The notes beneath the pieces are model-generated. The model saw nothing but the letters and a program-made list of their open reading frames with translations. It made no database searches and was not told the origin of the DNA. Of a stretch of DNA of 52,522 bases, positions 263 to 23,458 are shown piece by piece. Source of the stretch: a virus. Lineage: Duplodnaviria > Caudoviricetes. The translations under genes and the position numbers were made by a program. Positions within the stretch are counted from its first letter, which is position 1. Every line of letters starts with the position of its first letter. Location of the stretch: positions 1-52,522 of IMG/VR virus record IMGVR_UViG_3300032216_000546; one strand, written 5' to 3'.

Positions 263-423
263 TAATAACCCTACTGGCATTGTGTGTAGGATGTGTAGGG
301 TAGGCAGGGTCTATTTGTGTTGTACTCTTCTTTTTTTTTTTTTTTTTTTTTTTAAAAAATAATAAAGTGACAAAGACCCTGCCTACCCAACACATCCTAC
401 ACACACTGGCAGTAGGGTTATTA
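263..423. repeat. 50-bp imperfect inverted repeat flanking an AT-rich spacer with T23; candidate origin or packaging control element
   Basis: Arms 263-312 and 374-423 match at 47/50. The spacer contains T23 (331-353) followed by A6. Confidence 0.9.
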
Positions 424-471
424 TTTGATTGGGGCGCGCATCATCTGGAAAATGGGTGGTTAGGGTCAGAC

Positions 472-1350
472 ATGGGAATTGACGCCAAGACGCCCATCCC
501 TACGGTTTCTGGATGGAAGCCGGCGCGGGCTATCACCGCAGGGGACGAGGTATTTTCTTTTGATGGAACACCGACTAAAGTCCTGTCCACCCAACTCTAC
601 ACTCCGGCGGAGTGTTTCAAGATTTGGTTTGAGGACGGAGTGACGTTGGTGGTTGACGCGCGAACTGGTATTCCCATCATACCGAACATGAAGATCAGGA
701 CCCTGGGCGAGTGGACTCGCACAAGGCGCCGAACCAGTGAATACACCATAGAGCCGTTGGGTCCCCGCCTCCTACTGGAGAAATCCAAGGACAGGCACTT
801 GGTACCTAACTGCCACCCGCTCAAGATGCCAAGGCGCAACTTGCCGGTGGACCCTTTTGTATTTGGACAATGGTACAACGACCGAGGCGCAAAACGCCGG
901 CGTGAAAGGGTTGACATTACAAGGGAGCTTATCGAACGCTACCCGATGATACCCACGGATATTCCAGAAGAGTATTTGTTTGCGTCCTTTGAACAGCGGT
1001 TGGCTTTGCTAAGAGGGATTCTTTCACAGCGAAAGCACTGCTTTGATCCTAAGCACGGCGACTTTAAGTTTGCGACACGAAGCGTCAAGGTGCTACGGCA
1101 GGTTCAAAACTTGGTTGAGTCCCTTGGGTTGCGGTCAAGGATTATGCAAGGTGGCCGTGGTTTTTGGCACACACTTAGGTTCAGGTCTCTGCTTAGGTTG
1201 GTTGAGAACCAAACACCACATAGGGCAATAGCAAGGCATGACTGTCGGGTCATCACCAAAGTGGAAAGTATTCCACCGAGGGAATGTGTTTACATTAAAT
1301 CAGAAGACACGCTAGTCGTCAGCGAAGGTTTTCTAACAATTTGCCTATGA
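472..1350 (+). CDS. Stand-alone degenerate intein-like (Hint plus LAGLIDADG relic) protein
   Basis: Block A-like TPIPTVSGWK..ITAGDEVFSFDGTPTKV; endonuclease-like DPFVFGQWYND, IPEEYLFASFEQRLALLRGIL and LVESLG; block F-like end. ATG at 472 is preferred over GTG 367, which lies in the inverted-repeat region. ATGA overlap with terL. Confidence 0.75.
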   Translation: MGIDAKTPIPTVSGWKPARAITAGDEVFSFDGTPTKVLSTQLYTPAECFKIWFEDGVTLVVDARTGIPIIPNMKIRTLGEWTRTRRRTSEYTIEPLGPRLLLEKSKDRHLVPNCHPLKMPRRNLPVDPFVFGQWYNDRGAKRRRERVDITRELIERYPMIPTDIPEEYLFASFEQRLALLRGILSQRKHCFDPKHGDFKFATRSVKVLRQVQNLVESLGLRSRIMQGGRGFWHTLRFRSLLRLVENQTPHRAIARHDCRVITKVESIPPRECVYIKSEDTLVVSEGFLTICL

Positions 1351-13292: not shown

Positions 13293-14621
13293 ATGGCAGA
13301 TATAAGCATACTCCAATTACCACCAACAACGTACGTAAACGTCAATGATGTTTCTGTGATTGTCCAAGGGGGTGTCACTAAAAAAGTAGCCGCAGGTGTT
13401 TTACTTGGAGGCACACAAGGTCCTACTGGACCACAAGGTAGCACAGGGGCGCAAGGAGTTAGAGGACCCACAGGCGTACAAGGGCCACAAGGTAATGCCG
13501 GGCCACAAGGCACCCAAGGTTTTGCAGGCCCCACGGGGCCACAAGGTAACCAAGGTATTCAAGGACCAACCGGCCCACAAGGCCCATACGGGCCTACTGG
13601 CGCACCATCAAACGTAACAGGGCCTACAGGGCCCACGGGGGCCCAAGGCGTTCAAGGTGCCACGGGCCCTACAGGTACCCAAGGCGCACAAGGTATTCAA
13701 GGTGTTCAGGGTGTTCAAGGTATCACAGGCCCCACGGGGGCTCAAGGCATACAAGGCATATCGGGCCCCACAGGACCTCAATCAAATGTTGTAGGACCAA
13801 CCGGCGCAACCGGCCCTACCGGCGCTGTATCAACCACCCCTGGACCTACAGGACCTCAAGGAGTCACAGGCCCTACTGGTAGTACAGGTGCAGGAGGACC
13901 TACAGGACCTCAAGGAGTCACAGGCCCCACTGGCAGTACAGGTGCAGGAGGACCTACAGGACCTCAAGGCATACAGGGCACTACAGGACCCACTGGAGCA
14001 ACAGGCCCTACAACTTATCCTGCCGCGGGAATTGCTGTATCAACTGGTTCGGCATGGACAACGTCCTATGGCACTTCTGGGGCAAACTCTGTTGTTGTTC
14101 GAGACGCCAATCAAAACATTAGTGCTAATTCAATTAGTGAAAGTTTTTCAAACGTAGCGGCTGCGGGCACTACAACAGTTCTTACTGCTGCTTCTGCTCC
14201 AAACTATGTGGTTACGGGTTCTGGTGGTCAGACGTATCAATTGCCTGACGCCACAACTTTGCCTAATGGTGTTAACTACACGTTTAATAATAACCAGAGT
14301 TCTGGAACAATTGTTGTTAAAAACAATTCTTCAACCACGGTTGCCACAATTCAATCCGGCGGTTTTGTAGAAGTTATTTTGTTGTCTAACGCAACTTCTG
14401 CCGGCTCTTGGGATTTACACACTTTTGCACCAGCAAATGTTTCTTGGTCAACCAATACATTGGATTATGCAGGCTCAATTACTTCCGCAACATGGAACGG
14501 TGCTACTGTTGCAATTAACCGTGGAGGCACGGGCCTTTCAACAATTGGGGCTGCCGGCACGGTGTTAAATTCAAACGGCACAGTTGCTTCTTGGGGTAGT
14601 GTATCAGGAGGCACGTTCTAA
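13293..14621 (+). CDS. Collagen-like fibre protein
   Basis: About 200 aa of Gly-X-Y repeats (GPTGPQG) followed by a beta-rich C-terminal domain. Confidence 0.85.
13842..13969 (+). repeat. 54-bp tandem duplication within the collagen region
   Basis: Two near-identical 54-bp units plus a partial third ([18 protein letters not shown]). Confidence 0.85.
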
Positions 14622-15679
14622 TGAAGATAGCAGTTTATGCAATCAGTAAAAACGAAGAACAGTTTGTAAAACGGTTTTGTGACTCGGCAAAAAGCGCCGA
14701 CTTGATATTGATTGCGGACACTGGGTCAACCGACAAAACAGTCGAGTTGGCAAAAGAACAAGGCGCTGTGGTGCATGATATTTGCATTTCCCCATGGCGT
14801 TTTGATAAAGCAAGAGACGCCGCACTGGCGTTAATCCCAAGGGACATAGACGTCTGTGTCAGCCTTGATCTTGACGAAGTACTTCAGCCAGGTTGGCGTG
14901 AAGAAATTGAGCGCGTGTGGACCGAAGGGACCACACGTTTACGTTATAAATTTGACTGGGGGCAAGGAATTGCCTTTTATTATGAAAAAATTCATTCTCG
15001 ACACGGCTACTACTGGCATCATCCTTGTCACGAGTATCCGGTACCTGATCCAAGACTACAAGAAGTCTATGCCCAGACCGACAAATTACTGGTAATCCAT
15101 GAGCCGGACAACACCAAGTCAAGAAGCCAATACTTAGACTTACTTAAAGTCGCAGTCACGGAGGACAAAGAGTGTCCTCGCAATGCGTTCTACTACGCTC
15201 GTGAACTAACATTCAACTACAAGTGGCAAGAAGGCATTGAGGCCTTAAACAAGTACCTTTCGCTCCCTGGCGCCACATGGCCTAACGAGCGGTGTTACGC
15301 CATGCGCATCATGAGCAAATGCTATGAAGAGCTGGGAGACATCCATGCGGCCCTTAAATGGGCCCGTCTGGCGGTCGCTGAGGCCCCTGGAACACGCGAG
15401 CCTTGGGTCAACCTAGCTTTAATCACTTACAGGCGTTCTATGTGGCCTGAGAGCTATTCTTCGGCGTTGACTGCTTTGGACATCAAGGACAAAGAGGCGG
15501 TGTACACCATGGACCCCGCCGTGTGGACAGAACAGCCCTACGACCTGGCCAGCATAGCGGCTTGGAATTTAGGATTGAAGAATCATGCAATTGAGTTTTG
15601 TAAGAAAGCCCTGGAGTTTAATCCCTCCGATTCAAGACTTATTACCAACCTTAGCCAAATGACAGAGGAAGTTGTATAA
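14621..15679 (+). CDS. GT2-family glycosyltransferase with TPR-like C-terminus
   Basis: IAVYAISKNEE, DTGSTDKT and LDLDE (DxD) motifs; helical repeats at the C-terminus. Confidence 0.88.
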   Translation: MKIAVYAISKNEEQFVKRFCDSAKSADLILIADTGSTDKTVELAKEQGAVVHDICISPWRFDKARDAALALIPRDIDVCVSLDLDEVLQPGWREEIERVWTEGTTRLRYKFDWGQGIAFYYEKIHSRHGYYWHHPCHEYPVPDPRLQEVYAQTDKLLVIHEPDNTKSRSQYLDLLKVAVTEDKECPRNAFYYARELTFNYKWQEGIEALNKYLSLPGATWPNERCYAMRIMSKCYEELGDIHAALKWARLAVAEAPGTREPWVNLALITYRRSMWPESYSSALTALDIKDKEAVYTMDPAVWTEQPYDLASIAAWNLGLKNHAIEFCKKALEFNPSDSRLITNLSQMTEEVV

Positions 15680-15958: not shown

Positions 15959-16321
15959 ATGGCCGCATATAAATCACGTTTCGATCACGCTAAAAAAGAC
16001 GCCGAAGTTGAGGCAATGGACATGGCTCAAGACAAAAAAGTTGTCAAGAAAGCTATTGCCATGCACGACGAGCAAGAGCACAAAGGCGAAAAAACCGACC
16101 TCAGCAAGTTGCGCAAAGGCGGCAGAGCTAAAAAAGAAAAAGGCACTGTTCGCGAAATGTGCGGCGGCGGCATGGGTAAGTACAAAGAAGGCGGACGCAT
16201 GTCTGACTTGACCCCCGGCACAGCTAAAGGCAAGAATAAAGAAGACGCTATTAAAAAGACGCCTGATATCAGCAAAGATATCAGTAAGTTCAAAAAAGGC
16301 GGAATGAAAAAGGTTTGCTAA
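15959..16321 (+). CDS. Lys-rich protein with four xxxGG motifs
   Basis: LRKGG, MCGGG, YKEGG and FKKGG. Confidence 0.75.
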   Translation: MAAYKSRFDHAKKDAEVEAMDMAQDKKVVKKAIAMHDEQEHKGEKTDLSKLRKGGRAKKEKGTVREMCGGGMGKYKEGGRMSDLTPGTAKGKNKEDAIKKTPDISKDISKFKKGGMKKVC

Positions 16322-22104: not shown

Positions 22105-22244
22105 TGGACAAAATCACACTACCTATCAATCTTCTTAACGCCATCATGGGCTACTTAGGTAAGCAACCCTATGACCAAGTGTTCCAATTAATTGCTGAAG
22201 TGCAGAAAGAGGCACAGGCACAGACTCCTCCCCCGCAGGAATAA
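22104..22244 (+). CDS. 46-aa hypothetical protein (not in ORF track)
   Basis: MDKITLPINLLNAIMGYLGKQPYDQVFQLIAEVQKEAQAQTPPPQE; TAATG coupling on both sides. Confidence 0.75.
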   Translation: MDKITLPINLLNAIMGYLGKQPYDQVFQLIAEVQKEAQAQTPPPQE

Positions 22245-22800
22245 TGGATCCAATTACCATCTTTGCGGCTTGTAAGGCGGCGCATGCGGGCATCAAAGAA
22301 TGCGTGGAGCTTTATAACCAGTTTAAAGAAGATGGTAAAGACCTATCAGGGATAGTCACCGACATCAGTCAACATTTGGGTAAGTTCTTCACGCACAACG
22401 AAGAGTTCAAAGTTGCTGAGAAGGAATCCCAAAAGGTTCCTTTACCCAAAAATATATCCATCAACGAAGAGGCAATGAACAGAGTTCTTCGTCAAGAGCA
22501 GATGCAACAGATGGAAACTGAATTGCGTGAAATGATTATCTATCAGGTAGGGATGCCGGGACTCTGGTCTAAGTTTGCTGACATGCGTGAAGTCGTTAGG
22601 AAAGAACGTGAGAAAGTTGAGCGTGAACAAAAAAAGCCGTGGCAGAAGCTGCGTACAAACGCAGACTTCTTATTCAAAAGTACCAAGTACGAGCAACACT
22701 GTGCGCTGCAATTTTGATTGTATTTCTTGAGTTTGTCGGGCTGATGTACTACGTACACAACGAGTATCAAAAGTCAAAACATCACATAGAAAGCAAATAA
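22244..22800 (+). CDS. Lysis-adjacent protein with predicted -1 frameshift (157-aa form ends at 22717; 185-aa TM-anchored form ends at 22800)
   Basis: In-frame A_AAA_AAG at 22630-22636 and hairpin at 22644-22670. The -1 frame encodes a TM helix and stops at TAA overlapping the next ATG. Confidence 0.7.
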
Positions 22801-23021
22801 TGGATTTTTTAAAAAACATAGTAACCGGCAAGGACAACGAGACACACGACATTGGTCGCTGGTCTTGGGTCCTTTCTTTTTTGGCGGTAGTCATCATTGG
22901 TATATGGCAAGTCGTTAACGGTAACGCCGTGTCGTTGCGCGAGCTTGCTGAATCCCTGGGTCTTGTGTCAGGGGCACACAGCGCCTCGCTTTGGGCCAAG
23001 AAAGACACTGAGCCACAATGA
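22800..23021 (+). CDS. Putative holin
   Basis: 73 aa with one or two hydrophobic segments; directly upstream of spanins and endolysin. Confidence 0.55.
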   Translation: MDFLKNIVTGKDNETHDIGRWSWVLSFLAVVIIGIWQVVNGNAVSLRELAESLGLVSGAHSASLWAKKDTEPQ

Positions 23022-23458
23022 GACTGGTTCCGCTTTTATTACTTATCTGGGGTTTATCTTCTTGGTACATGTTCCATAAAGGGTACGTACAAGCTGAACT
23101 GGAACAAGCGGCAGTTACGGCCCAAGCAAACATAGAGGCCAGGGACGTTGAACAGAAACACGCAAAACAAGTCACTGATTTGGCTTATGAACTCAAGAAA
23201 GCAAACGACGATGTTAAAACAACTAAGCTGCGCGCTGACGTGCGCTCTGGCGCTTTGCGCTTGTCAGTCCCTGCCTCCTGTACCGTACTCAGCGCCGAAG
23301 GCGCCGGAGCTGCCTCCGGAGATAGGACAGAAGCGAGAGCCGAACTTGACCCAAAGACTGCTGACGATCTTATCGCCATCACAAAAGACGGCGATGACGC
23401 AATCAGGCAACTGAACGCCTGTATTGATGCATACGCAATTGTGAAAGACACTAAATGA
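23018..23458 (+). CDS. Rz: Rz-like inner-membrane spanin
   Basis: N-terminal TM, LRADVRSGALRLSV, RAELDP and GDDAIRQLNACIDAY. Confidence 0.88.
   Translation: MRLVPLLLLIWGLSSWYMFHKGYVQAELEQAAVTAQANIEARDVEQKHAKQVTDLAYELKKANDDVKTTKLRADVRSGALRLSVPASCTVLSAEGAGAASGDRTEARAELDPKTADDLIAITKDGDDAIRQLNACIDAYAIVKDTK
23211..23414 (+). CDS. Rz1: Rz1-like outer-membrane lipoprotein spanin, nested in Rz
   Basis: +1 frame; MLKQLSCALTCALALCAC lipobox-like signal followed by a Pro-rich segment. Confidence 0.7.
   Translation: MLKQLSCALTCALALCACQSLPPVPYSAPKAPELPPEIGQKREPNLTQRLLTILSPSQKTAMTQSGN

Follow-up and report, generated by a model that had tools for sequence, protein, structure and literature searches.

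How does a phage gene come to encode its full product when its reading frame closes before its only membrane-spanning segment is reached? The question is raised by the gene at 22244-22800 (+) of a 52,522-nucleotide (nt) stretch of viral DNA (Duplodnaviria; Caudoviricetes), IMG/VR record IMGVR_UViG_3300032216_000546, positions 1 to 52,522; this whole stretch is called the window below. A sequence-only reading had proposed that a programmed -1 frameshift in this gene, which precedes a presumed holin gene, yields a soluble and a membrane-anchored isoform. The results reported here suggest that the gene is very probably recoded, and that its canonical product would require a -1 change of frame by programmed ribosomal shift. 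The broken-frame layout is kept in many related phages and therefore looks deliberate rather than erroneous.

Slippery heptamer and reading frames

The open reading frame (ORF) 22244-22717 begins with a part common to both putative products, 131 codons at 22244-22636 (+) that encode an N-terminal soluble helical domain and end in Q129 K130 K131. It reads CAA AAA AAG at 22628-22636, which places the slippery heptamer A_AAA_AAG (22630-22636, +) in the X_XXY_YYZ phase, as had been proposed; the run of seven A occupies 22629-22635 and contains the start of the heptamer. Past the site, the 0 frame continues for 26 codons (22637-22717, +) to the TGA at 22715-22717, the end of the unshifted product. 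Translation in the -1 frame from 22636 gives the 54 residues quoted earlier and then the TAA at 22798-22800 (extension 22636-22800, +); the final A of this stop also begins the ATG (22800) of the next ORF. The extension passes from a basic stretch to a hydrophobic transmembrane (TM) helix and a short charged end. The product sizes first suggested are likewise borne out, with 157 amino acids (aa) in the unshifted 0 frame and 131 + 54 = 185 aa after the shift. A -1 frame TGA stop (22624-22626, +) lies 12 nt 5' of the first -1 codon. On the 3' side, a spacer of 7 nt (22637-22643, +) leads to a stem-loop of 11 base pairs (22644-22670, +) with one bulged A and a 4-nt loop, the likely stimulator of the shift.

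As far as can be told from sequence, this arrangement of A_AAA_AAG, 7-nt spacer and stem-loop is that of a classical bacterial -1 signal. In the mechanism we propose, ribosomes would start at the ATG at 22244 and read the 131 codons of the soluble helical domain. With tRNA-Lys on AAA AAG of A_AAA_AAG as the ribosome meets the hairpin 7 nt 3', a fraction of ribosomes would slip back by one base and read 54 more codons in the -1 frame. The outcome of the shift would be a protein of 185 aa, the long last helix of which continues into a C-terminal TM anchor, that is, a tail-anchored inner-membrane protein. The ribosomes that do not slip would make a soluble protein of 157 aa, consisting of the same domain and 26 unselected residues.

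Conservation of the site and change of coding frame

The related loci were the best 80 of 164 confirmed on viral contigs. The sequence CAAAAAAAG is invariant and in the same phase in all 80 of them and in the window, which agrees with the expectation that homologues keep the heptamer; 77 of the 80 were picked up by the search motif, and in the three without the motif (L052, L058 and L061) the site was confirmed separately. Among the 243 homologues returned by a search of a clustered protein collection, which derive from many assemblies, the 120 listed have lengths of 157-173 aa. Alignment A1, built from 25 of them, is conserved in nearly all columns up to K131, after which both length and sequence diverge; the number of invariant columns up to this residue is 60-70 in A1 and A3. 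The 0-frame tails that follow K131 are 26-41 aa long and have no conserved columns. The -1 ORFs of the loci are 50-55 aa long and align nearly without gaps (39 distinct -1 tails form alignment A4), and their end coincides with, or falls within a few bases of, the start of the next gene.

The codon-position entropy in 56 unique sequences is 0.50/0.30/1.22 upstream of the site in the 0 frame and 0.78/0.58/1.34 downstream of it in the -1 frame. Pairwise identity over the 26 codons 3' of the site averages 62% when these are read in the -1 frame, as against 36% for the 0 frame and 30% for the +1 frame, with a nucleotide identity of 64%; over the 26 codons 5' of the site it is 87% in the 0 frame. 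These figures indicate that both halves of the gene are under purifying selection, each in its own frame, that the coding frame changes exactly at the heptamer site, and that the 0-frame tail is unselected as protein. The proposal of two isoforms is supported as regards the two reading frames and the product sizes, and does not extend to the 0-frame C-terminal tail, which has no conservation. If the soluble form has a role, it would be that of a truncated N-domain rather than of a protein with a second designed C-terminus.

The -1 frame TGA is found at the equivalent place, 12 nt upstream, in 54 of 54 unique clade sequences, and the A-run is therefore the sole entry point to the -1 frame from upstream. 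A separate observation concerns the eight bases GAGCGTGA (22619-22626; columns 22-29 of alignment A2), which contain this TGA. No difference is found in them across 49 unique sequences, even at synonymous positions; the neighbouring Glu and Arg codons vary.

Unsplit relatives and the canonical product

The N-domain profile A3 (131 residues) was compared with 1.84 billion cluster representatives at an expectation value (E) cut-off of 0.001, and 147 proteins were found at E ≤0.001. A simple hydropathy rule identifies 92 of the 147 as single-frame proteins of 140-260 aa that have the same domain and, after it, a C-terminal TM helix. The remaining 55 comprise fragments, borderline cases and complete TM-less proteins that break at a K-K pair. 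In the in-frame relative P0128, the -1 tail profile A4 aligns with residues 143-188, which directly follow the N-domain (hhalign 98.3%, E 1.6e-14); when the tail of the window is used by itself, P0124 is matched at E 0.001. The window N-domain matches phrog_32327 at E 1.5e-9, with residues 1-130 on profile positions 2-120 of 152; the in-frame relatives P0124, P0126, P0127, P0168 and P0179 match the same family.

An AlphaFold2 model of P0128, made from a 92-sequence alignment, has a mean predicted local distance difference test score (pLDDT) of 92. It has helices at 4-34, 39-72 and 81-109, and a fourth, single helix at 115-190 that is predicted to span the point where the frameshift junction falls and to continue into the membrane segment. 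In the window, the C-terminal TM helix becomes contiguous with the domain only via the -1 frame. Because the in-frame relatives join the same domain and the same tail, the shifted 185-aa protein appears as the normal architecture of the family, and the 0-frame product as the domain without its anchor.

States of the site in the wider family

After loci for four further split representatives and one in-frame representative had been added, a census covered 186 loci in which the gene was scored, the window being one of them; a few contigs are counted twice in it, e.g., L080/L184 and L103/L179. The A7G state (CAA or GAA AAA AAG) is the one found in 88 loci with 61 unique sequences, and the A6G state (GCA AAA AAG) in 10 loci, so that the heptamer phase is present in 98 of the 186. 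A9G occurs as CAA AAA AAA AGG in 79 loci and as a run ending a codon in 2, and A10G in 1 locus. Two loci (L091 and L093) are in-frame, with a TM helix and no A-run; 3 loci are partial and 1 runs into the contig end. Wherever the gene is split, the TM tail is carried by the -1 frame. The A6G subfamily retains the exact heptamer despite the shorter run, which indicates that what is kept is the exact heptamer and not the run length. The sister subfamily L096-L175 (e.g., L096:1501-1983) has A9, once A10, at the codon position of window 22628-22636 and likewise needs a -1 shift to reach the TM tail and the periplasmic end.

A quick maximum-likelihood tree of 67 N-domains, limited to rows of at most 300 aa that cover profile positions 15-115, places split and unsplit members interleaved in one supported clade. 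This mixed clade has 26 rows and a Shimodaira-Hasegawa-like approximate likelihood ratio test (SH-aLRT) support of 97; 11 of its rows are without a 0-frame TM helix and 15 have one. The well-supported branches of the tree force at least five changes of state, with the proviso that P0135, P0184 and P0194, which the tree labels as lacking a TM helix, lie near the limit of the hydropathy rule and could be in-frame. The persistence of split members beside in-frame ones in many lineages is a hint that the split state is more than tolerated.

The downstream hairpin

Folding of 22625-22700 reproduces the hairpin described in the sequence-only reading, with the stem AGAAGCTGCGT / ACGCAG-A-CTTCT and the loop ACAA at 22644-22670. 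The minimum free energy (MFE) of the window fold is -17.6 kcal/mol compared with a shuffle mean of -10.25 (z -2.84; 4 of 200 shuffles are as stable). Compared with synonymous recodings of the -1 frame, the window hairpin has a z of -2.21, and 1.7% of the recodings are as stable. In 42 unique relatives, the 45 nt 3' of the site fold at a mean of -11.8 vs. -6.4 kcal/mol for other segments of the gene, and in 17 of the 42 at most 5 of 113 control segments fold equally well. The natural sequence turned out to be more stable than its synonymous -1 recodings in 43 of 43 sequences, with a mean z of -1.49; at most 5% of the recodings fold equally well in 16 of these 43.

The fold differs with the state of the site. 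At A7 sites the mean downstream MFE is -11.3 vs. -6.1 for controls, with a median rank fraction of 0.03, and at A9 sites it is -4.0 vs. -5.7, with a median rank fraction of 0.79. The folding class labelled as a run of six A was mixed with the upstream AAAAAAG of A7 loci, and only L081-L090 are true A6G; among the six unique rows of the latter, five (L083, L084, L087, L089 and L090) fold at -14 to -17 and L081 at -4.7. These values indicate that the hairpin accompanies heptamer-type sites and is missing where the run is long enough for another mechanism.

Proposed ribosomal shift and alternative explanations

The simplest way to dismiss the frame change would be to take the seven A for a homopolymer miscall, the true run being A8, or for a recent inactivating deletion, and homopolymer runs are indeed classic places for sequencing and replication errors. 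However, the same run length is found in 88 loci (61 unique sequences) from many samples, and each half of the gene is under purifying selection in the frame that it uses. The A-run is crossed without an indel by five assembled contigs, which come from three public runs and in part from divergent strains, and no A8 was seen among them, as assemblies in which minority variants are not visible; a miscalled homopolymer is therefore not the explanation. The fused 185-aa form is absent from the best 120 of the 243 homologues. A search of longer proteins with the -1 tail gave one match among 7 candidates, P0122 (122 aa, from a 510-nt contig), which joins a holin-like N-terminus to the TM tail; it was considered as a fused form and taken as a probable assembly chimera instead. 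In favor of an error, a 95-aa database fragment, P0144, has nine 0-frame residues past the K-K site and then re-enters the tail frame; this return implies a second indel or error 3' of the site. Altogether, an artefact or a dead gene seems extremely improbable. Nor does it appear at all probable that the locus consists of two genes, a complete 157-aa ORF and an independent 53-aa membrane protein translated from GTG 22639. Such a start is available in the window, where an in-frame GTG is the second -1 codon, and ATG, GTG or TTG occurs within the first four -1 codons in about half of the relatives. Yet 9 of 54 unique sequences have none of these codons within the first 30 -1 codons, and a further 12 have none before -1 codon 19, a position within or past the conserved basic stretch. 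The residue of the first -1 codon, 5' of GTG 22639, is invariant and the residues around this GTG are conserved. The 0-frame tail, with which a complete 157-aa ORF would end, is unselected beyond K131. Finally, both parts form one polypeptide in 92 of 147 distant relatives, to whose contiguous tail the -1 tail is homologous.

A different agent of the same frame change would be RNA polymerase, which might slip on the A-run and add one A to some transcripts, so that the 185-aa protein is read in one frame. An mRNA with one extra A encodes the identical protein, and 82 of the 186 loci have A9 or A10 at the same codon position with no downstream hairpin (the MFE of -4.0 vs. -5.7 given above). Bacterial RNA polymerases slip productively at runs of about nine A, as in Thermus dnaX, and the slippage-stimulating hairpins described for RNA polymerase sit upstream of the run. 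The window run, however, has only seven A, fewer than the threshold of about nine A/T for transcriptional slippage, and the six-A subfamily (GCA AAA AAG) keeps the exact ribosomal heptamer. In 49 of 49 unique sequences the base that closes the run is G, even though a change to AAA would be silent in the 0 frame and would make the run longer; this argument is qualified by the fact that the same G is also the first base of the invariant -1 Ala codon. Downstream hairpins at 7-11 nt, present with short runs only, are a ribosomal arrangement. Slippage of RNA polymerase thus seems improbable for the window: it is unlikely at the A6-A7 sites and plausible in the A9-A10 subfamily. For the window we infer that the slip is made by the ribosome rather than by RNA polymerase, that the hairpin acts as its stimulator, and that a ratio of the two products results.

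A number of findings weigh against the ribosomal shift or against the strength of its signal. Taken alone, the heptamer is no rarity in this A-rich genome and does not go beyond chance: AAAAAAG occurs 26 times in the window vs. 18.2 expected, and at least 26 copies are reached in 7 of 100 shuffles. What does appear to go beyond chance is the conservation of the heptamer combined with the change of coding frame. In favor of the ribosomal shift, the passages of PMC5009743 that deal with the E. coli dnaX site describe A_AAA_AAG as that site and as far more shift-prone in E. coli than A_AAA_AAA; this comparison is that of E. coli and may not apply to the tRNA-Lys set of the host. Inspection by eye revealed no convincing Shine-Dalgarno-like 5' stimulator, with no GGAGG-like element at the right distance, and an Rfam scan of 22500-22850 found no frameshift element, its three hits having E of at least 3.6 and scores far below the gathering scores. 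The two contigs from RNA libraries end at 22587-22590, 5' of the site. The sister A9-A10 subfamily, being without the hairpin, indicates that the family can do without a ribosomal signal.

The remaining objections concern the hairpin. Its excess of stability over the recodings is modest, and the 43 sequences are related, so that the counts are not independent. RNAalifold, applied to a fixed-column alignment of 49 sequences, gave no common structure and no consensus pair, because neither the codons that form the stem nor its register are the same from one lineage to the next; after this result each sequence was folded singly. In the window clade, one stem pair, read by eye, is G-C in the window, G-U in most sequences and A-U in the L005 type, the last having arisen via a non-synonymous Ala-to-Thr change. 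The classical covariation support amounts to this single G-C/G-U/A-U pair. Thus, of what a comparison of homologues was expected to reveal, the hairpin itself is present, although rebuilt in different registers, and covariation is limited to one pair. As a separate observation on the motif, the densest cluster of AAAAAAG in the window comprises 4 copies in 310 nt (15992, 16034, 16130 and 16292), within a 120-aa ORF at 15959-16321 (+).

Lysis cassette and possible function

The window appears to be a complete tailed-phage genome with terminase, portal, head and tail-fibre genes; it also encodes an internal virion protein with a transglycosylase domain, a DNA polymerase, a primase-helicase and a ribonucleotide reductase. 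The recoded gene sits after the tail-fibre genes and before genes for a 73-aa protein, a spanin and a lysozyme. Since it precedes holin-like, spanin and endolysin genes, it is taken as the first gene of the lysis cassette. The next gene (22800-23021, +) encodes the 73-aa small membrane protein, a candidate holin. The holin label given to it earlier can serve as a lead: it agrees with the position and with the ESM Atlas automatic name 'Holin family protein' (0.96), and the protein has no Pfam and no PHROG match. It is followed by an Rz-like inner-membrane spanin (23018-23458, +; PF03245, E 5.1e-9; phrog_2466 and phrog_1327, 'Rz-like spanin', E 1e-17) and by the endolysin, a phage lysozyme (23455-23907, +; PF00959, E 4.6e-49; phrog_7, endolysin, E 2.7e-62). 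Inside the spanin gene, the ORF list has an embedded +1-frame ORF at 23148-23414 (+) with an internal Met, a lipobox-like L-C-A-C and a proline-rich stretch, which has the usual look of an outer-membrane spanin (Rz1).

In every relative examined, the recoded gene is the first of the lysis cassette, and the lysis genes that follow it vary. It may be followed by a membrane protein of about 165 aa (phrog_1544; phrog_3427 'holin' in L081) and then an M15 peptidase, by an Rz-like spanin directly, or by other small membrane proteins and a lysozyme. In L001, L003, L007, L077 and L090, the Rz-like spanin comes next and a small holin-like gene appears later, just before the M15 endolysin. This spanin-first order shows that the lysis genes are shuffled around a constant first gene, and the constant position beside interchangeable lysis partners argues for a lysis-related function. 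We consider a role in lysis or its timing likely.

Searches for a named relative yielded little. The family, phrog_32327, is annotated as 'unknown function'; it is the only PHROG matched by those in-frame relatives that were scanned against PHROGs. Pfam gave nothing above the cut-off for the window protein or for ten in-frame relatives, and the N-domain and the tail match no Pfam family and no PHROG of the lysis category. Hence, of the features of a holin or antiholin, a TM protein encoded in the lysis cassette was found and a family match was not. A blastn comparison of the region with GenBank phages gave no match. There are three weak matches only among GenBank phages, all to a 'hypothetical protein'; one of these, JMMIOEOB_00113 of Limnohabitans phage DC31 (tblastn, 31% identity, E 2e-5), lies three genes upstream of the endolysin. 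A Foldseek search of the P0128 model against the PDB had no match at E ≤0.001, the best ones being syntaxin-type three-helix bundles at E 0.16-0.6. VIA wide gave the same model Z values of 10-11.5 to spectrin, plakin, syntaxin Habc and designed bundles, which is below a meaningful level for helical bundles. These matches are generic three-helix bundles, and therefore no functional inference is drawn from them. ESM Atlas placed P0128 in unnamed viral clusters only. A two-copy complex prediction for the N-domain had a score of 0.00, controls not having been run, and counts neither for nor against self-association.

A more speculative idea, which we regard as possible although on balance improbable, is that the frameshift serves as a lysis clock, in which the anchored 185-aa form and the soluble 157-aa form oppose each other and the efficiency of the shift sets the lysis time. 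If this were true, the two forms, sharing a three-helix cytoplasmic domain, would behave as a holin-antiholin pair does, or as a membrane-bound regulator does with a soluble decoy. Repeated switching between the in-frame state, A_AAA_AAG with a hairpin, and A9 would then reflect phages tuning the ratio via the recoding signal.

Elsewhere in the window, ORF 304-1350 (+), which stands before the large terminase gene, has a partial terminase-family match (phrog_15, positions 79-218 of 1330) and its beginning is preceded by a long run of T, which the stop-to-stop frame translates as eight Phe. ORFs 367-1350 and 1341-2786 were considered as a second frameshift and rejected, since the second has its own ATG at 1347, overlapping the stop of the first. 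Among the tail-fibre genes, 14621-15679 (+) matches phrog_13126, 'beta-1,4-glycosyltransferase', over its full length at E 7e-100.

Comparison with known systems

Most of the conserved programmed frameshifts known in tailed phages belong to genes for tail assembly chaperones or to one of a few capsid genes. Literature searches in full texts, supplements not included, returned only tail chaperone, capsid, dnaX and MS2 coat/lysis cases and none on this gene family. The mechanism proposed here belongs to a known type. What appears undescribed is the gene family, and that a lysis-cassette protein would gain its sole membrane anchor in this way. If the reading is correct, the known cases would be joined by a new and abundant family, with members in freshwater viral metagenomes and at least one relative in culture, Limnohabitans phage DC31. 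The DC31 gene JMMIOEOB_00113 belongs to the same family as the window gene and is annotated as a single ORF of 483 nt for a hypothetical protein. Gene callers split or truncate the gene, as seen in listed homologues of 157-173 aa with unselected ends, and the true product would therefore be missing from protein databases. With its in-frame members, its sites with A_AAA_AAG and a hairpin, and its A9 sites without a hairpin, the family may offer a natural comparison for the rules of recoding.

In E. coli dnaX, a 3' stem-loop lies a few bases downstream of the shift site and a Shine-Dalgarno-like 5' element about 10 nt upstream. The heptamer is the same A_AAA_AAG read by tRNA-Lys, and the two products share their N-terminus (PMC5009743, in its account of the heptamer). 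The outcomes are opposite: in dnaX the shift gives the short product and the 0 frame the full protein, whereas in the window gene the shift would give the full canonical protein. The window gene also differs in having no evident Shine-Dalgarno-like 5' stimulator, and the proteins are unrelated. IS3-family OrfAB uses A_AAA_AAG or a similar heptamer with a 3' structure, its full-length protein is made only as a trans-frame fusion, and the shorter upstream-frame product is a regulator. The window gene resembles it in the heptamer and the 3' structure and in a functional full-length protein that would be reached by trans-frame fusion. Unlike the transposase, it is a lysis-cassette gene without a long separate ORF B, and the shift adds a membrane anchor of 54 residues.

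The tail assembly chaperone frameshift was reportedly described by Xu, Hendrix and Duda in 2004. As stated in the relevant passages of PMC3091744, the -1 frameshift of tail assembly chaperone genes (lambda G/GT, P2 E/E+E') is conserved across many phages and produces, from one start, two proteins with a common N-terminus; the same passages describe hairpins as rare at these frameshift sites. The window gene differs from the tail chaperones in the gene itself, its position in the genome and its product, and this phage has no such gene pair. Here, recoding would decide on the presence of a protein's only membrane anchor at the head of a lysis cassette, and the recoded gene is a concrete candidate for a new lysis regulator. 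In lambda S105/S107, one lysis gene with a dual start gives two products, the ratio of which sets the lysis time. The likeness, which is an analogy only and which underlies the lysis-timing idea of the sequence-only reading, consists in one lysis-cassette gene with two products of shared sequence. The lambda forms are two N-terminal residues apart and arise from alternative starts, whereas the forms of the window gene would differ by the presence or absence of the sole TM helix and would arise by recoding.

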